Origin: Candidatus Thorarchaeota archaeon
GTDB lineage: Archaea; Asgardarchaeota; Thorarchaeia; Thorarchaeales; Thorarchaeaceae
Direction of reading: 5' to 3'
Length of the DNA: 62,411 bases
Assembly (NCBI GenBank): GCA_048882385.1
Contig: JBHLRQ010000001.1
Coordinates: forward strand, 79,340-141,750
Position numbers and translations under genes: made by a program. Shown here one piece after another: positions 5,093 to 42,345 of the stretch. The number at the start of each line of letters is the position of its first letter. The stretch's first letter is position 1. The notes beneath the pieces were generated by a model. It was not told the origin of the DNA. It did no database searches and was given only the letters and a program-made list of their open reading frames with translations.

Positions 5093-5532
5093 TTCACAAT
5101 CTGTTCATGTTTACATAAATTCACACATAGTTAGTGTGAATGGCGCCAATATTGTGAACACTCTGTGAGAAACAGTCATCTTATCGCCTTAAGAATAGAA
5201 TAGAGGTACGATATATGCGGTGATGCCTGTGAATAAGCACACCCCTTCGTTTCCAGTGGAAACAGGTAAGAAGAGATATGAAATGCTTTCATGTTCATTC
5301 ACAAGGTTCATAGATTAGTGAATAATGAAACAAATGGAGAGTCCCGTTTATTTACCAAAAAAAGACCTCATAATCCTTTTTTGTGTTCAAATGGACTTCA
5401 CAGGACGTCAGCACAGTAAATACAGGGTGGACGAGGTCTTTATGTGTACAGACGCACTATGTCGCTCTTATCTTGGTATAGATAATTCACATACTCACAC
5501 TTATTTGCAATATCATTATAGTTGATTGTGAA
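5093..5532. repeat. Cluster of nine TGTGAA/TTCACA boxes
   Basis: Copies start at 5093, 5120, 5135, 5153, 5228, 5298, 5397, 5486, 5527; includes inverted repeat ATTCACAC-N7-GTGTGAAT at 5119-5141. Confidence 0.8.
5241..5263 (-). promoter_or_regulatory. ORB-like element (origin recognition box)
   Basis: Reverse complement reads GTTTCCACTGGAAACGAAGGGGT: TTCCAxTGGAAA dyad plus G-string, as in archaeal ORBs. Confidence 0.75.
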
Positions 5533-7543: not shown

Positions 7544-8836
7544 CTATTGGATATATTGTGTGAGATATTGATAGTTCTCAGTTAATCTACCCTGGTATAC
7601 GATTATTGCATCTTTGAGCTCTCGGGGTAGATCGAGCTCTGAAAATGGTAAAGTAAAATCTGCTCTTGCCAAAGCAGGAATAAAATCGAGAAGTGTTTCA
7701 CTGAACGACATAGATGATTCTCGTGGAAGTTCAGCTGGAAGATTGTCAACTGCCATCACGACTGGACCATCGCCTTTGACACCCAATTCAGCTCGATCCT
7801 CATCAATAATGTATGTGAATGCGGGTCTGTCTGGCTTTGTACAGTTTAAGGTAAATTCAATCGCACCTTGTACATCACATGATATGTCGCCTACAATCTG
7901 GAGTTTTCGAAAGTCTTGTTTCCAATATTTTTTAATGAACTCCTTAGTAATTAGGCGAGGATACTTATCAGACCAGTAAATGCAATTCATGAGTATAGTA
8001 ATGTGTGGAATATACTTGTGAAATATGCCTACATACTTTGCTTTTCCATTCTTGTAGTAGTCTTGAAGATCAAACTTCTGAGATGGATCTTTGGGTTCAA
8101 CCATATGTTCTTCCTTGAAAACGCATTTGTATATCAAGTCTGATTTTGGAGGCAGTCCGTCAATTTCATCTGGATTAACAACTTTGTGTGGAAGAATATT
8201 GAATATCTCTTGAGCTCCTCTTGATACATTACCATATCCTGCAAAGCCAATTACAAAAGGAGTAAGCTCTTTGGGAAGTCCCTGCTCCTTGATACGAGAA
8301 CCAAGATCAGAGAATTCCTGTTTCAGTTGGTCAATCCCTCCAAGTTCAAGAGTTGGTTTCATTTCTGCAAATGGATTAGGTCTGATACCTTGTGACTTTA
8401 GACGATTACCAAGCATTCGGAAAGTATCTGATATCCCAGCCATTCCTGCCCAGTTTCCAAAGAAGATTAGTCTTCGACCCTTATCATCAACAACACGTTC
8501 GTAATCAATCAGAGTCGCTCCAACATCCATGATTCGTTTAAGCATTGGCATATTGTAATCTTGACCCTTGATAGTGTGACTAAAGAATACATAGACAATG
8601 TTCTTTTCAAAGAAATCGATAGGCATTTCCTTGATTCCTAGTACAACAGGTGTTTTACTACCTTTTAATGGTAAAACTTCTGCCTGATACTCATCTTCTT
8701 TGAATGCTCGTTGATTGCTTGGTTCAAGAACAAATTCAATGTTATGATTTTCATTTAGTAGTTTGACATGATCAGGTATCAATGGGACTCGGGTTTCGAA
8801 TGCTTTCTCTTCTTTCCTAAGTCCAATTCGGTTCAT
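7544..8836 (-). CDS. Lysine-ketoglutarate reductase / saccharopine dehydrogenase (lysine-forming; AASS N-terminal type)
   Basis: ETRVPLIP, FFSHTIKGQ.YNMPML, LIDYE, GYGNVSRGAQEI, DISCD..GAIEF, AVDNLPAELPRESS. Confidence 0.9.
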   Translation of the reverse strand: MNRIGLRKEEKAFETRVPLIPDHVKLLNENHNIEFVLEPSNQRAFKEDEYQAEVLPLKGSKTPVVLGIKEMPIDFFEKNIVYVFFSHTIKGQDYNMPMLKRIMDVGATLIDYERVVDDKGRRLIFFGNWAGMAGISDTFRMLGNRLKSQGIRPNPFAEMKPTLELGGIDQLKQEFSDLGSRIKEQGLPKELTPFVIGFAGYGNVSRGAQEIFNILPHKVVNPDEIDGLPPKSDLIYKCVFKEEHMVEPKDPSQKFDLQDYYKNGKAKYVGIFHKYIPHITILMNCIYWSDKYPRLITKEFIKKYWKQDFRKLQIVGDISCDVQGAIEFTLNCTKPDRPAFTYIIDEDRAELGVKGDGPVVMAVDNLPAELPRESSMSFSETLLDFIPALARADFTLPFSELDLPRELKDAIIVYQGRLTENYQYLTQYIQ

Positions 8837-8966
8837 TGGATAATCTCCTATATCATGTATCAGACAATGTCGACCGCCGTGCTACCTACGCTTTAACTTT
8901 TCCGTGCAGGCTATGTATTACTAGCACTCAAAATCAGAACACGTGTTCCTTAATTGGTCGTTTCAA

Positions 8967-9257
8967 TTGAGTTCATATTTGTATCTCTATGATTGTCGTC
9001 ATGCAAGACGTACTAATGCAAGACGAGTTGCATTTACGAAGGAGCTTTACGGCTATACATATTCTTGGAAAACAAAGTCTGGAGTCAAACAGAAAAGAAA
9101 ACCTGGTCTCTTAGATGAATGTCTAGGAGCTATTGCGGTTGCTGATTCAGCAATATTAGTTCCATCTGAACATCGTATTGTTTTTGATTCTCTCTTTGAA
9201 ATGTATGAAGATATTCTAAAGATTCGGATCTATGAAGTAGTTCAAGAAATCATATAG
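8967..9257 (+). CDS. Small hypothetical protein, possible Cas2/VapD-like ferredoxin fold
   Basis: YLYLYD N-terminal strand, helix RVAFTKELYGY, VADSAILVP; TTG 8967 preferred over GTG 8943. Confidence 0.55.
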   Translation: MSSYLYLYDCRHARRTNARRVAFTKELYGYTYSWKTKSGVKQKRKPGLLDECLGAIAVADSAILVPSEHRIVFDSLFEMYEDILKIRIYEVVQEII

Positions 9258-9343
9258 AACACGTGTTCTATCTGCTAATACTTGTAATACAATGAAATTG
9301 TATCAAAAATAATCTTAGAACATGTGTTCTGAAGACATTCGAA

Positions 9344-9508
9344 CCCCCTTGTTTCCACTAGAAACTATTCAAAAATGTCTAATCGTTAAAATATCCAAAA
9401 ATATTTATAATCGTTTATTCAGCTGCCATTTATCTCCATTTTTTTAATGCATATACATACCCTCGCTGCTTGAATTCTCCATAGATCATTCCACTGGAAA
9501 TCAGGGGG
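9344..9508. promoter_or_regulatory. oriC: Candidate replication origin: two inverted ORB-like boxes flanking an AT-rich spacer
   Basis: 9344-9365 (-) GTTTCTAGTGGAAACAAGGGGG; 9489-9508 (+) TTCCACTGGAAATCAGGGGG; 123-bp AT-rich spacer. Confidence 0.7.
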
Positions 9509-9630
9509 TCTTATCCGAGAAATACTAACTAGAACACGTGTTCGAAATACAAAAAATAAGGGCTAAGACCACAAAACTGATACATCATTCGTATTCCCAC
9601 TCGAAACATCCAAACATGGAGGATTAGAGA

Positions 9631-11523
9631 TTGGCCAAAGCCAACGAACTTCTTGAGGATAAACCAGGAAAAGAAATTCTTCTCCTTGCCAATGAAGCAA
9701 TTGCTCGAGGTGTATTAGAAGCCGGTGTTCGACTTGTCGCTCTCTATCCTGGCACACCAAGTAGTGAAATTGGAAACAATCTGACATCCATGGCACCTCA
9801 CATACCAAACTTCTACTTTGAATTCAGTACAAATGAGAAGGTTGCTCTGGAAGTGGCAGGGGCAGCTGCTGTTGCAGGTGTGAGATCCATGATGGTCTGT
9901 AAAGGTCCAGGTCTCAATGTAGCAGCTGATCCATTCTTTTCACTTACATATGTTGGTGTTCGGGGAGGAATGGTGGTAGTTGTAGCAGATGATCCAAGTA
10001 TGTGGAGTTCTCAAAACGAAAATGACAGTAGATACTATGCGCTCATGGGAAACATGCCAATGATGGAGCCTGCTGATCCAATTGAAGCAAAATCTATGCT
10101 TCTTGAAGCCTATAAGTTCTCAGAGCAACTCGAATTACCAGTACTGTTTCGTACCACTACTCGGGTTAATCATACACGAGCTCCTGTGACGTTCGGAAAA
10201 ATACTACCTCGTCCAGATAAAATCGAGTTTGAAAAGGAACCATTCCGATTCGTCCCTGTTCCATCTGTTGCACGTAAACGACACCCTTGGCTCCTTAAAC
10301 AGATAGAGAAAGCGAAGGAATTGTCTGAAAAAAGTCCCCTGAACTATGTTGAGGGAAAAGGCGACCTTGGGATAATCACTTCTGGCGTTTCATATACATA
10401 TATAATTGAAGCACTTTCCTACATGGAAATCAAAGCTGAGGTTCTGAAGCTTGGAATCACTCATCCAGTTCCTGAGAAAATGATCACAGAATTCTTGCGT
10501 CGTCATAAACAGGTTATGATTGTAGAAGAATTAGAACCATTCCTTGAAACACATGCTAGACGGTTAGCACATTTGAACAAAGTCAATGTCGACATCCTTG
10601 GAAAAGAACAAGGTATCTTCTCTCGTACCTACGAATATAGTCCAAAGATTGTAATGAATGCTCTAAAGGAAATTACTACACGTAATACACCTATTAATTG
10701 GGAGGCCATTGACAAGAAAACAAAGGAACTACCTGAATTACCCCCAAGACCCCCACTTCTATGTGCTGGATGCCCGCACAGAGCAACTTACTATGCAATC
10801 CGAACTGCGACAAGAGGAAAAGCAATCTATCCTTCAGACATTGGTTGCTATACTCTAAGTATTGCACCTCCACTAGAAACAGCTGATATCCTGTTCGATA
10901 TGGGATCTTCAATAACTACTGCATGTGGTCTTGCTGAAGTCACAGACCAAGACGTTGTTGCAACTATTGGTGATAGTACATTCTTTGCATCTGGTCTTCC
11001 AGGCATTGCAAACGCAGTTTATAATCAACATCGAATCTGTGTTGTAATACTTGATAATCGAACCACTGCCATGACAGGTCATCAACCCCATCCTGGTACA
11101 GGAATAACAGGTATGCAAAAAGAAGTTCCACCTCTGGATATTGCAGAAGCATGCAAAGGTCTAGGCGTCAAATATGTCAAGACTGTTGAACCATTCGAAT
11201 CAATGGCAAGTTTGGTTGCTGAAGTACGTGAGATGGTAAAATGGACAAGAGAGAATCATAGTCCTTCAGTACTAGTTTCGATAGAGCCATGTGCACTTCT
11301 CACTGCAGCAGAACGTCGTCGAACAGGAGAATTTCCACCTAGGTACTTTGTAGATCCAGAGATATGTAATGCATGCAAACGTTGTCTCAATCGCCTTTCT
11401 TGTCCTGCAATGTACATGGATTCAGAAACAGAACAAGCTGTGATTGATGAAACTCTGTGTAATCTCTGTGGGACCTGTGTTTCAGTTTGTCCACAAGGCG
11501 CAATAAAACAGGAGGATGCCTAA
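9631..11523 (+). CDS. iorA: Indolepyruvate:ferredoxin oxidoreductase alpha subunit
   Basis: NEAIARG, YPGTPSSEI, NEKVALE, PPRPPLLCAGCPHR, DIGCY, IGDSTF, C-terminal ferredoxin Cys motifs. Confidence 0.95.
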   Translation: MAKANELLEDKPGKEILLLANEAIARGVLEAGVRLVALYPGTPSSEIGNNLTSMAPHIPNFYFEFSTNEKVALEVAGAAAVAGVRSMMVCKGPGLNVAADPFFSLTYVGVRGGMVVVVADDPSMWSSQNENDSRYYALMGNMPMMEPADPIEAKSMLLEAYKFSEQLELPVLFRTTTRVNHTRAPVTFGKILPRPDKIEFEKEPFRFVPVPSVARKRHPWLLKQIEKAKELSEKSPLNYVEGKGDLGIITSGVSYTYIIEALSYMEIKAEVLKLGITHPVPEKMITEFLRRHKQVMIVEELEPFLETHARRLAHLNKVNVDILGKEQGIFSRTYEYSPKIVMNALKEITTRNTPINWEAIDKKTKELPELPPRPPLLCAGCPHRATYYAIRTATRGKAIYPSDIGCYTLSIAPPLETADILFDMGSSITTACGLAEVTDQDVVATIGDSTFFASGLPGIANAVYNQHRICVVILDNRTTAMTGHQPHPGTGITGMQKEVPPLDIAEACKGLGVKYVKTVEPFESMASLVAEVREMVKWTRENHSPSVLVSIEPCALLTAAERRRTGEFPPRYFVDPEICNACKRCLNRLSCPAMYMDSETEQAVIDETLCNLCGTCVSVCPQGAIKQEDA

Positions 11524-19272: not shown

Positions 19273-20247
19273 TCATTGGACCTCCCTGAGTAAAGTTGCA
19301 TATGCTTCAGATACAAGTTCAGCAATTTCTTTTGTCACATCTGGATTACCAGAGTTCCTAAGATTTTCAGCTGCTACTTGTTGACATCCTCGTGCCAACA
19401 TCCGTATGTCTCGTGGATTTCCTTTTGCAGCATTGTTGATTACATCTATCGCACTATCTGAAAAGGGATAGATACTGTAATTATCCGGATCAAAGCTGTC
19501 AATCCGGTTTTGAGCATAGGCAATTCGACGACCTATGAACTCTCTTGCTTTTGCATCATTGAGCGGTGGAACATCAAGTGGTTCTGTGCGATCAGCTATC
19601 TGTGGCAAGAATGAAAGCATTGCATTCCAATAAATCAAGGTTCCAGACATCACTAAGGTGAAAATAGGCTCATCAAGAGCTCCTGAATATGCATCAATCA
19701 TTTCTTCAGTAGGTAAATCTGCAAGGAACCTTAGTTTGTGAAATGCTGCTTCTTGATTATCTGCAACATCTTCAATGAATAACGCAGTACGGCTCTTTTC
19801 CTCAAGATACCTTCTAAGACTTTCCTTTGCAACAGCATCAATAATCTGGCTTGACTCCCACGACCTTCGATATTTAATCCTAAGAGAATCAGCAATAGCT
19901 GAAGCCATTTGTTTTTCATAGAGACCTGTCATTCCTACATAGCCAGTGATGAATTTGTTACCCTTGCGATCCGCAAGTGTTGGCAAATCTCTCAGTGCCA
20001 AAAGCATTAGTGTACTCTTCCCCGAACCAACAGGTCCTCTGATGAAGACGTGTCGTTCATTTGTAATAATCAGGTCAACAATGGAATCAAGAAAGTCGCT
20101 ATCTTCTATGTATAGACGGCTATCTGGCATTTTAAAACCACGAAATGGTGAAAACCTAGCACCAATCTTTTCTTCCCAAGCACGTAGAACCTCTTTTCGA
20201 GTATTGAAGTGACGAATCAGTGCGCTCTCATGGATTGCGATCGTCAT
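19273..20247 (-). CDS. ExeA/GspA-like AAA+ ATPase
   Basis: N-terminal SPF motif, Walker A GPVGSGKS, Walker B LFIED, LVMSG, IADR, PFSDSAIDVI...GNPRDI; SD GGAGGT before ATG 20247. Confidence 0.85.
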   Translation of the reverse strand: MTIAIHESALIRHFNTRKEVLRAWEEKIGARFSPFRGFKMPDSRLYIEDSDFLDSIVDLIITNERHVFIRGPVGSGKSTLMLLALRDLPTLADRKGNKFITGYVGMTGLYEKQMASAIADSLRIKYRRSWESSQIIDAVAKESLRRYLEEKSRTALFIEDVADNQEAAFHKLRFLADLPTEEMIDAYSGALDEPIFTLVMSGTLIYWNAMLSFLPQIADRTEPLDVPPLNDAKAREFIGRRIAYAQNRIDSFDPDNYSIYPFSDSAIDVINNAAKGNPRDIRMLARGCQQVAAENLRNSGNPDVTKEIAELVSEAYATLLREVQ

Positions 20248-20425
20248 TTGTGGACCTCCGAAGAGTGGTATCACAAGTACTGCTTGTAATACAATTTTGA
20301 GTAAATCGATTCGGATATAAAATGTGTGGTAAAAATGTCAATCAGACACAACCTTTTTGAAGACAATGAACTGGCTGAAAGCTCAATCTAGCTCTAATTG
20401 AAAAATACCATAGGAGACACATGAA

Positions 20426-27152: not shown

Positions 27153-27274
27153 GCGGGAGTAGCCAAGCCAGGTCAAAGGCGGTGGACTTAAGATCGCACT
27201 AAGACATGGGGTCAAGTGGATAAGATATCCACTCTCGTAGGAGTTCGTGGGTTCGAACCCCACCTCCCGCACCA
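27153..27274 (+). tRNA. tRNA-Leu(TAA) with 34-nt intron at about 37/38
   Basis: GCGGGAG/CTCCCGC-ACCA; GTGGA-CT-TAA-G[intron]A-TCCAC; long variable arm. Confidence 0.92.
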
Positions 27275-31304: not shown

Positions 31305-31447
31305 GCCGCAGTGGCCTAGCCTGGTTAGGGCGCGAGACTCATAATCTGGCCGGAATATCCGGTTGACAATGGGGTCATAAAGATTAGATGAGCGCCATGA
31401 GATGAGACATCTCGAAGTCGAGGGCTCGAATCCCTCCTGCGGCACCA
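31305..31447 (+). tRNA. tRNA-Met(CAT), probably elongator, with 65-nt intron at 37/38
   Basis: GCCGCAG/CTGCGGC-ACCA; CGAGA-CT-CAT-A[intron]A-TCTCG; BHB-compatible junctions. Ile2(CAT) not fully excluded. Confidence 0.88.
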
Positions 31448-34693: not shown

Positions 34694-35695
34694 GTGAACC
34701 AATTGCAATCGATATATCAAGACTTCACATCGTTCATATTCAATCTATTTCAAGGGCTATCAGATGCCCTGATTCCATTGGGTATTCCTTTTGGACCAAT
34801 AGCATGGTTTTTCATCATCACAATAACGCCAATGTTCCTAATAATAGTCCTACTGGTTGTACGTGGACGACGTGGTTCTACGTCAAGTGACGTAAGTGAG
34901 GCAGTAAGAAAAATCCTCGCATCAACAGGCGATGTTTCGGGTGGAATGGCTGGTGCCAAGAAACTAAAGTTTCTAAAAACTCCTGCACAAGCACTCGCTT
35001 TTCTTAAGGTTGAAGAAAATGCAATTCAACAAGCCTTGTCTGCAATTGACTATTATCATCAACAAGGCGACATTGATGAGGCTGTAAAGGACAAACTTGC
35101 TAGTGCCTATCAAGATCGTCTATCAACAGTCAAAGATGCTCTTGCGAAGGATGAACAACTAAAGCAGATTGTAGATACATCATCTGCGGTTGACAGAGCC
35201 CGATCTGACTATCTAGCCAAACTTGCAGCAATGTCTGGAACTGCAGTAGAAGATGATGCTGCTGAAGCTGGGCCCACAAGTGTTGGAATGCCTGACAAAG
35301 TTACAACAGCTCCCCCAAGTGGCGAAGCTCCAAGCGGTGCTCCTCCCAGTGGTGGTCCTCCAGGTGGCGGTCCTCCGGGTGGTGGACCTCCTAGTGGCGC
35401 TCCTCCAGGTGGTGCTCCCCCAGGCGGTGGACCCCCTAGTGGCGGTCCTCCGGGTGGTGCTCCTCCAAGCGGTCCGGCTCCAAGTGACGAACCTCCAAGT
35501 AGTGAACCCCCTAGTGGCGGTCCTCCGGGTGGTGCTCCTCCAGGTGGGCTTCCGGGTGGCGAAGCTCCAAGCGGCCCCCCAGGTGGTACAGCTCCTGATG
35601 GTACTCCTCCAAAAACAGCTGGTGGAAAGAGTTCACTGCAGTCTGAAATGCTTGCAGAGATGGAACGTCTCAAGGCTCTAATGGGTGGAGATTGA
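34694..35695 (+). CDS. Membrane-anchored protein with helical domain, Pro/Gly-rich linker and C-terminal amphipathic helix
   Basis: TM segment near aa 33-56, repeats of (S/G)G(G/A)PP, tail SSLQSEMLAEMERLKALM. Confidence 0.85.
   Translation: MNQLQSIYQDFTSFIFNLFQGLSDALIPLGIPFGPIAWFFIITITPMFLIIVLLVVRGRRGSTSSDVSEAVRKILASTGDVSGGMAGAKKLKFLKTPAQALAFLKVEENAIQQALSAIDYYHQQGDIDEAVKDKLASAYQDRLSTVKDALAKDEQLKQIVDTSSAVDRARSDYLAKLAAMSGTAVEDDAAEAGPTSVGMPDKVTTAPPSGEAPSGAPPSGGPPGGGPPGGGPPSGAPPGGAPPGGGPPSGGPPGGAPPSGPAPSDEPPSSEPPSGGPPGGAPPGGLPGGEAPSGPPGGTAPDGTPPKTAGGKSSLQSEMLAEMERLKALMGGD
35310..35610 (+). repeat. Imperfect 15-bp coding tandem repeat (GGxPP pentapeptides)
   Basis: Units such as GGTGGTCCTCCAGGT / GGCGGTCCTCCGGGT. 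Confidence 0.85.
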
Positions 35696-35797
35696 GGATC
35701 ACCTTTAGGACAATTGATAGATTTTTTCAATCCTAAGTGATACTATCGACCAAAATTACCATTCCATCATTATTAGGCAGCAGCTAGACATCACTAC

Positions 35798-36001
35798 ATG
35801 ATGAAGCTTTCAAGATGGCAACTGGTAGACGGACAAGTATATCGTCTTGTGGATGTGCTTCATAGCAAGAGAAATGCCGAAATCCTGGCAAAATCTCTAG
35901 AGGATAATTGTGCTATTGCTATAATATCTACCGAAGACGGTAGATGGGCTGTATATTGGAGACCAAAAACAGGAACTCTCTGTCCGTATGGTGTTGTATA
36001 G
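35798..36001 (+). CDS. Small hypothetical protein, paralog of 31509-31721
   Basis: WQLVDGQVYRL...WAVYWRPK...CPYGVV. Confidence 0.8.
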   Translation: MMKLSRWQLVDGQVYRLVDVLHSKRNAEILAKSLEDNCAIAIISTEDGRWAVYWRPKTGTLCPYGVV

Positions 36002-42270: not shown

Positions 42271-42345
42271 GGGCACGTAGTCTAGTATGGATAGGGCGCT
42301 TGCCTTCGGAGCAAGATGTCGCAGGTTCGAATCCTGCCGTGCCCG
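42271..42345 (+). tRNA. tRNA-Arg(TCG), intronless, CCA not encoded
   Basis: GGGCACG/CGTGCCC-G; CTTGC-CT-TCG-GA-GCAAG; followed by CTA. Confidence 0.93.

Follow-up and report, generated by a model that had tools for sequence, protein, structure and literature searches.

An oriC1-type replication origin candidate with distant initiator genes and bracketing palindromes, conserved in a family of Thorarchaeota-type Asgard archaea

The DNA analyzed here is a stretch of 62,411 nucleotides from a Candidatus Thorarchaeota archaeon, referred to below as the window; it forms the final 62 kb of the 142-kb contig C1 in a genome assembly (G000) of 256 contigs. At C1:88.7 kb, two full origin recognition boxes (ORBs) in inverted orientation enclose an AT-rich spacer, and we consider this element likely to be the core of a chromosomal replication origin. 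It lies between an alanine dehydrogenase/PNT-like gene on the left (7544..8836, minus strand) and an iorA-like gene with TPP and 4Fe-4S domains on the right (9631..11523, plus strand), both of which are transcribed away from it. The left box, ORB-L (9344..9364), reads TTCTAGTGGAAA-CAAG-GGGG on the minus strand, and the right box, ORB-R (9489..9508), reads TTCCACTGGAAA-TCAG-GGGG on the plus strand, each with its G-string facing away from the spacer. The two boxes make up an inverted repeat of 21 nt with 81% complementarity, the G-runs being on the outer sides. A lone third full box, ORB3 (5242..5261; minus strand, TTCCACTGGAAA-CGAA-GGGG), lies about 290 to 300 bp upstream of a winged-helix protein gene, P0122. 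An initial annotation of this DNA had proposed a candidate origin on the strength of the two inverted boxes, the AT-rich DNA between them, and palindromes 14 and 23 bp outside them (9318-9329 and 9532-9543), all of which were confirmed; it had missed ORB3 and two further palindromes, at 8937 and 9257, that bracket a small open reading frame (ORF).

All three boxes match a single register of dyad, 4 nt, and GGGG. A relaxed form of the ORB pattern matched 6 sites in the 3.7-Mb assembly, 3 of which fall within this 4.3-kb stretch, and the same genome-wide scan found no further ORB cluster elsewhere in the genome. A reversed control pattern gave 0 matches in every genome searched. One ORB-like box on another contig (G000:C4:52038-52058; L022:4039-4059) falls within an ORF of 444 aa and has a linker of 5 nt; it is probably a chance match. 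The 124-bp spacer (9365..9488) is presumed to be the duplex unwinding element (DUE). Bases 9366-9488 (123 bp) are 71.5% AT, compared with 59.4% for the whole window, and the left half (9366-9420) is 82% AT. The low helical stability expected of such a spacer was borne out by nearest-neighbor energies: the spacer region contains the 5th least stable 60-step window and the 3rd least stable 100-step window of the 62 kb. The spacer also holds a TATA-like A/T block (9398-9410) and a short motif, TTATCTCCATTT (9430-9441), which has 1 site in the window and 2 in the genome (0.93 expected) and is kept in four genera.

The initial annotation had held that G-strings pointing away from the spacer are opposite to characterized origins, a claim that did not survive comparison with other archaea. 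A scan of public genomes with a pattern of dyad, 1 to 8 nt, and GGGG returned at least 122 loci; among 80 with titles, 40 were archaeal and represented many phyla. Among the matches listed, the 20-nt form with a 4-nt linker accounted for 38 of the 40 archaeal but 1 of the 40 bacterial titled loci. When 2 overlapping self-matches and 7 tandem direct pairs were excluded, the inverted ORB pairs in the public loci comprised 18 with outward G-strings (gaps of 133 to 254 bp, usually AT-rich) and 3 with inward G-strings. The orc1-adjacent ORB pairs of three other Asgard genomes (G020, G025, and G065) are outward as well. Opposed ORBs have been described as placing the winged-helix domains and lids of the initiator facing each other across the DUE (PMC6742236), and the winged-helix domain as protecting the conserved mini-ORB while the initiator-specific motif (ISM) of the AAA+ domain binds beside it (PMC3089459); we infer that the ISM side corresponds to the G-string. 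On the basis of these two sources and our public survey, outward G-strings appear to be the usual archaeal layout.

Conservation of the boxes in relatives, the lack of which the initial annotation had listed among refuting outcomes, was found at several depths. A 741-bp region was matched in 17 of the 18 other genomes of the genus (15 strongly and 2 weakly, with no match at all in the remaining one). An alignment of 9 genomes showed no variation in the ORBs, the palindromes, or long stretches of the spacer, whereas the adjoining coding DNA varied at codon third positions. The same layout was present in three other genera of the family (G042, G053, and G044), and a third ORB 4.1 to 4.2 kb from the pair was found in these three genomes and in G036, G050, G058, and G059. 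Beyond the family, representatives of three other families (G020, G025, and G065) carry a homologous module in which the same small ORF abuts an outward ORB pair with a P0122 homologue nearby, as here, 1 to 2 kb from the best orc1 match. The gene beside orc1 in these genomes is, from our reading of its first residues, presumably that of the small subunit of DNA polymerase D. The modules differ in that orc1 and the polymerase-like gene are 1 to 2 kb away in those genomes but 63 to 78 kb away in the family of the window, where two metabolic genes also separate ORB3 from the ORB pair.

This conservation bears on whether the element has any role in replication. A chance cluster of motifs, the ends of a mobile element carrying the small ORF, or a noncoding RNA gene could account for a TATA-like block in the spacer and for a 35-nt imperfect inverted repeat (74% complementary; 8914-8948 and 9257-9291) that flanks the small ORF. 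However, the motifs occur far above chance, the module stands beside the same genes across four families, and the spacer gave no Rfam match at E values up to 1 and no folding signal (z scores of +0.18 and +0.40). Since the module keeps the same neighbors across four families, nothing suggests a mobile element. We regard explanations of this kind as scarcely tenable.

In agreement with the initial annotation, no Orc1/Cdc6 gene was found in the 62-kb window by a TIGR02928 search above its cutoff. An Orc1-1 orthologue lies elsewhere on the contig (C1:20669-21784; TIGR02928, 422 bits), 67 kb from the ORB pair, as does a second Orc1/Cdc6 paralogue, Orc1-2 (C1:64544-65635; 297 bits), 23 kb from the pair; a third, weak TIGR02928 match is on another contig. 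No ORB-like repeats were found beside the two full orc1 genes. The second paralogue is the nearest initiator gene, 19 to 24 kb from the ORBs, in 8 of 8 family genomes examined (7 genera), and the first is 63 to 78 kb from the ORBs in 4 family genomes and on another contig in the other 4. According to a review, one core orc1 copy normally adjoins the predicted origin (PMC5333045). This hallmark of oriC1, an adjacent orc1/cdc6 gene, is absent here and present at the homologous module of G020, G025, and G065; adjacency to such origins is usual, not obligatory. The distant initiator is a conserved trait of the family, throughout which the rule that places the origin next to its initiator gene is broken. 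The origin has kept the small ORF and the winged-helix gene as neighbors and has lost orc1 and the polymerase-like gene. Within the window, a 333-aa P-loop ATPase (19273-20274, minus strand) has weak matches to AAA_16, AAA_22, and NB-ARC; its match to an Orc1/Cdc6 model spans only 63 residues (E value of 0.016), and by these tests it is not an initiator.

Strand composition changes close to the ORB pair. On contig C1, the lowest point of the cumulative MK disparity is at C1:88581, within 100 bp of the cluster of palindromes and ORBs. With correction for gene strand, which the noisy raw skew of G065 and raw GC skew of G020 made necessary, the cumulative GC skew had its extreme 1.2 kb from the ORB pair in C1 and in the corresponding contigs of two other genera (G042:C7 and G053:C33); this distance is that of the midpoint of the neighboring gene and is the finest resolution of a gene-by-gene correction. 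In the complete 1.42-Mb genome G020, the corrected extreme lay 3.6 kb from the pair and was the genome-wide maximum. The amplitude of the corrected curve was reached by 0 of 1000 gene-order permutations in each of these four cases. Four of the 6 contigs thus showed the corrected GC switch no more than 4 kb from the pair. The raw MK curve of G044:C2, a contig of 592 kb, climbs steadily for 378 kb and then descends for 214 kb; its peak is 0.2 kb from the pair, and the extreme of the corrected AT skew in this contig is 1.2 kb away.

Gene orientation changes at the same place. The plus-strand share of coding DNA to the left and right of the pair was 32% and 57% in G000, 35% and 54% in G053, 46% and 52% in G042, 47% and 59% in G044, and 46% and 61% in G020 (over 400 kb), with coding DNA mostly on the minus strand to the left and mostly on the plus strand to the right in all five contigs tabulated. 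In the complete G020 genome, the cumulative gene-strand curve was lowest at 575 kb and highest at 1304 kb, and the pair lies at 623 kb. Since genes point away from the site, these data favor an origin over a terminus, an argument that is independent of any skew convention.

That convention has to be considered, because the corrected cumulative GC skew was at a maximum at the site in 6 of 6 contigs analyzed, and in bacteria such a maximum marks the terminus. By the bacterial rule, the site would be a replication terminus or another strand-switch landmark. An Asgard genome paper did take the cumulative-skew minimum as the putative origin (PMC9246712), and another predicted replichores and a terminus in Asgard genomes from skew alone, with the iRep script, in passages that do not state which extreme was used (PMC11291895). 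However, a terminus would not be expected to carry full ORBs in origin layout around an AT-rich spacer, to adjoin orc1 and a putative gene for the small subunit of DNA polymerase D in three other families, or to have genes pointing away from it rather than towards it. Inverted skew is also documented at experimentally mapped haloarchaeal origins, which lie at the G/C disparity peak and have a C-rich leading strand (PMC1868953). A terminus or another strand-switch landmark is therefore very improbable. A GC-skew maximum at an origin implies that the leading strand is C-rich, and the data suggest that these genomes reverse the bacterial rule of skew polarity.

Collectively, conservation, homology to orc1-adjacent Asgard modules, the strand-composition switch, and diverging gene orientation support well the reading of 9344-9508 as an origin. 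The candidate origin of the initial annotation stands on these grounds and without its polarity argument. The segment is likely, to judge from its sequence and context, to be the core of an active chromosomal origin of the oriC1 type in a Thorarchaeota-type Asgard archaeon. New here are the distant initiator genes, the lineage-specific bracketing palindromes, the conserved accessory genes, and the inverted skew polarity.

Several points weigh against this reading. The evidence for it is all computational, and the initiator gene is not adjacent, contrary to the usual rule. The skew check called for by the initial annotation succeeded in part, in the four contigs given above; in G044 the corrected GC extreme was 29 kb from the pair, and in G065 it was 45 kb off the pair, with the raw MK minimum 31 kb off. 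The raw cumulative GC skew of G020 was noisy and had its maximum at 1.28 Mb, and in G000, an assembly of 256 contigs, the skew extreme holds only for one contig of 142 kb. Because the four contigs from the family are homologous, they are not independent and amount to about one observation, to which G020 is added. A skew maximum is compatible with an origin only where the leading strand is C-rich. Finally, some archaea live without using their origins (PMC12993045), and a conserved origin therefore need not be the main start site.

In a further alternative, the element is a retained dormant or accessory origin, or a set of Orc1 sites that now mainly control the small ORF, iorAB, and the winged-helix gene, while replication mostly starts elsewhere or by recombination. 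The unlinked initiator genes and the position of the ORBs and palindromes in promoter-sized gaps beside genes would fit this account. There are precedents in Sulfolobus, where Orc1 paralogues can regulate transcription and also leave footprints at origins (PMC9738581 and PMC6742236), and in haloarchaea, where dormant origins are known (PMC4595724). Against it, the composition and gene-orientation switches center on the site in several genomes, which argues for long-term use as a fork start, and the genome has no other ORB cluster, including beside its orc1 genes. We consider a dormant or purely regulatory role unlikely.

The active-origin reading can be compared with characterized origins. In Sulfolobus oriC1, ORB3, DUE, and ORB2 span 130 bp, with ORB1 in addition; the ORBs are bound by Orc1-1, and a ucm motif is bound by the protein UBP (PMC12141716). 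The two systems are alike in having inverted ORBs around an AT-rich spacer of about 125 to 130 bp and a third ORB farther off, and the Sulfolobus ORBs bind Orc1 monomers with a set polarity (PMC12141716). Both have a short conserved motif inside the spacer; the position of TTATCTCCATTT recalls that of ucm, a resemblance of place and not a demonstrated relation. They differ in that orc1-1 is immediately adjacent in Sulfolobus and 67 kb away here, and the passages of PMC12141716 on that origin do not mention flanking palindromes. With oriC1 of Haloferax volcanii and its relatives, the element shares G-string ORBs around a DUE and an inverted GC-skew polarity (PMC1868953); the haloarchaeal origins were proven by assays of autonomously replicating sequences, whereas the present one is predicted computationally. 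By analogy with Sulfolobus oriC1, one Orc1 monomer would sit on each ORB, with its winged-helix domain on the dyad beside the spacer and its AAA+ part on the outer G-string. Two inverted monomers would then place MCM on the AT-rich spacer of 124 bp, and forks would depart from there in both directions. ORB3 would be an accessory site, and the initiator would be supplied from a distant gene.

In addition to the ORBs, the locus carries four copies of the palindrome GAACAYGTGTTC. Palindrome 1 (GAACACGTGTTC; 8937..8948) lies 19 bp upstream of the start of the small ORF, and palindrome 2 (9257..9268) overlaps its stop codon. Palindrome 3 (GAACATGTGTTC; 9318..9329) is the one 14 bp outside ORB-L, a spacing of about 14 to 15 bp that recurs in G042 and G053, and palindrome 4 (9532..9543) is the one 23 bp outside ORB-R, about 90 bp upstream of iorA. 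The palindrome gave 8 strand matches compared with 0.85 expected, a number reached in 0 of 100 shuffles. It has 12 sites in the assembly, of which 4 are those described here, 7 are intergenic (some at 3' ends), and 1 is inside an ORF. Palindrome 1 was invariant in 9 of 9 aligned genomes of the genus, and palindrome 4 was present in 8 of 9 rows, the row of G018 (locus L010) ending short of that point, near the end of the locus. A 14-mer, TAGAACACGTGTTC, was found in 17 of 17 family genomes with 3 to 18 strand hits each, while a control pattern had 0 hits in the same genomes; outside the family, it was present in only 2 of 82 genomes from the phylum, G065 among them. In G065, a single exact palindrome and a one-mismatch copy flank the small ORF at the origin module, so that palindromes stand on both sides of it as here; the exact palindrome is absent from G020 and G025, which have both linked genes.

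Because the element is a perfect palindrome of 12 to 18 bp, binding by a symmetric dimer is the natural reading, and the palindromes are most likely sites for a dimeric DNA-binding protein. Such a protein could, we speculate, regulate the promoters on the two sides, gate access to the origin, or do both. Extra conserved protein sites beside ORBs are also known from the C2 and C3 sites and Orc1-2 of Sulfolobus (PMC3089459); the element here differs in being a perfect palindrome, and no evidence connects it with an Orc1 paralogue. Sulfolobus also offers a precedent for a factor that has sites at origins as well as at promoters elsewhere (PMC9738581).

Further observations concern palindrome copies and their surroundings. 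Each arm of the 35-nt repeat consists of a conserved TGTATTAC-type element and a palindrome, and the arms could be two facing promoter/operator units. In alignment A1 (columns ~440-500), G008 and G002 have an insertion between palindromes 2 and 3 with an extra mini-ORB-like TTTCCACTGGAAC. In G044 (C2:107810-107967; L206), 127 bp of AT-rich DNA separates a lone ORB-like box from a full palindrome; this place, 270 kb from the origin of that genome, may be a second, minor Orc1 site. A palindrome variant at G000:C1:54898, outside the window and 34 kb from the origin, precedes by 36 bp an ORF whose product we take, from our reading of its residues, to be a histone-deacetylase-type enzyme; palindrome sites at similar distances from the origin in G042, G047, G057, and G045 suggest a conserved regulated promoter. 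The palindrome also has a half-degenerate copy in G025 (ATACACGTGTTC; L019:4395-4429), where it and an ORB overlap at the inner edge of the box and have its TTC in common, a hint that binding to the palindrome and to the ORB could compete in that lineage.

Two genes are linked to the origin in these genomes. The small ORF, P0001 (8967..9257, plus strand), encodes a basic protein of 96 aa (isoelectric point of 8.9; 12 K/R and 1 D/E in residues 10 to 47) and is conserved beside the ORB pair. Its start codon is TTG, GTG, or ATG among relatives, and its conservation tracks codon positions. The search returned 173 homologues, the source names listed being hypothetical proteins of 'Candidatus Thorarchaeota archaeon', and homologues abut the ORB pair in G020, G025, G065, and G044. 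No Pfam or NCBIfam match was found, and a profile search of Protein Data Bank chains gave none at E values up to 10, so that no sequence relation to Sulfolobus UBP is seen. The structural model (pLDDT of 92) predicts a ferredoxin-like fold, for which Foldseek matches had E values of 0.04 or worse; the best VIA Z score was 7.9, for generic ferredoxin-like folds, and Cas2 chains scored 6.0 to 6.4. Fold searches with the model thus point to no specific family. The P0001 profile had no match within 300 to 400 bp of the ORBs in the at least 122 public loci, a negative that the short flanks make weak evidence; since the profile found nothing near public ORBs, the pairing of P0001 with the origin is seen in Asgard genomes only.

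The second gene, P0122 (5560..6186, plus strand), encodes a 208-aa protein with a predicted N-terminal alpha/beta domain, a C-terminal winged helix-turn-helix, and a long terminal helix (pLDDT of 80). In G020, G025, and G065, a homologue is situated between orc1 and the ORBs (alignment A3), and ORB3 of G065 is 289 bp upstream of the start of the homologue. Pfam and NCBIfam gave subthreshold matches only. Foldseek matched the model to winged-helix regulators of the PadR, MarR, BlaI, MecI, and RosR types with a probability of about 1.0 and E values of 0.003 to 0.02. The C-terminal domain of Cdt1 ranked 43 (E value of 0.015) and a human OCCM chain ranked 5 (E value of 0.005; probability of 0.82), among many PadR, MarR, and BlaI regulators that scored equally or better. 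The modeled C-terminal winged helix and long helix therefore resemble dimeric PadR, MarR, and BlaI regulators as a generic winged helix only. As a guess, P0122 is the leading candidate for the protein that binds the palindromes.

The palindromes may also have served as breakpoints. The spacer motif of G003 and G017 is found on the opposite strand although the flanks run in the usual direction, and the distinctive ORB, with its palindrome 14 bp away, has changed sides. The left gap of these flipped genomes is now 57 bp, which is the sum of the 23-bp gap and a 34-bp insert known in relatives and therefore matches the product of an exchange between palindromes 2 and 4. BLAST strand flips indicated the same state in G006, G007, and G015, bringing the total to 5 of the 13 genus genomes with a matched core. 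In a tree built from 1.7 kb of flanking DNA, the three flipped genomes sampled fell on one side of a 100/100 branch; because the tree groups them, a single event is enough within the genus, and this argues against frequent switching. In another genus, the core of G044 is flipped relative to its small ORF, while those of G042 and G053 are not, and if the genera are monophyletic, at least two flips have occurred. Flips within a population were sought in the Logan contigs of 4 runs, where no strand-changing joint was found; such contigs drop rare variants, so that this result is uninformative either way. Among them were one 1152-nt contig with the arrangement of the window, as well as two low-depth skip joints and several loose ends that probably derive from related strains. 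As judged by comparing genomes, the core flips look like a rare evolutionary inversion at palindromes and not a switch.

These observations can be joined in a broader proposal, which is tentative and which we think doubtful as a whole. The Asgard origin would be a cassette of ORB3 with the winged-helix gene unit, the small basic-protein gene, the palindromic brackets, and the core of two ORBs around a DUE, placed at a skew maximum, with the palindromes acting as operators of a dedicated origin regulator. A winged-helix dimer or the small protein would bind the palindromes and gate the access of Orc1 and MCM, and the same binder would control some 5 to 10 other loci in Thorarchaeaceae as its own regulon. 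The same palindromes would be the breakpoints at which the core has flipped at least twice. On this view, published Asgard origins assigned to the skew minimum from skew alone would in fact be termini.

Other features of the window touch none of these subjects. Its housekeeping genes include those for ribosomal protein S10, a glmS-like protein, and the ATP synthase D subunit. Two tRNA matches, at 27153-27271 and 31305-31444, are 119 and 140 nt in length, far longer than a plain tRNA, and therefore probably contain introns; ordinary tRNAs lie at 42271 and 46109. The interval 35001-36000 has a GC content of 0.50 compared with about 0.40 around it, and an RNA family search there found none.

Asgard archaea are the closest known prokaryotic relatives of eukaryotes. 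Among three papers found to mention both 'Asgard' and 'origin recognition box', no title dealt with Asgard origins, and two Asgard genome papers guessed such origins from base skew only (PMC9246712 and PMC11291895). The site described here provides a concrete, conserved Asgard origin sequence with three ORBs that is directly testable with recombinant Asgard Orc1 and MCM, and it extends the pan-archaeal oriC1 design into this group. If the polarity seen here is general, origins and termini assigned in published Asgard genomes from skew alone ought to be re-examined. Undescribed accessory origin factors are suggested, in turn, by the conserved genes linked to the origin and by the palindromes that bracket it.

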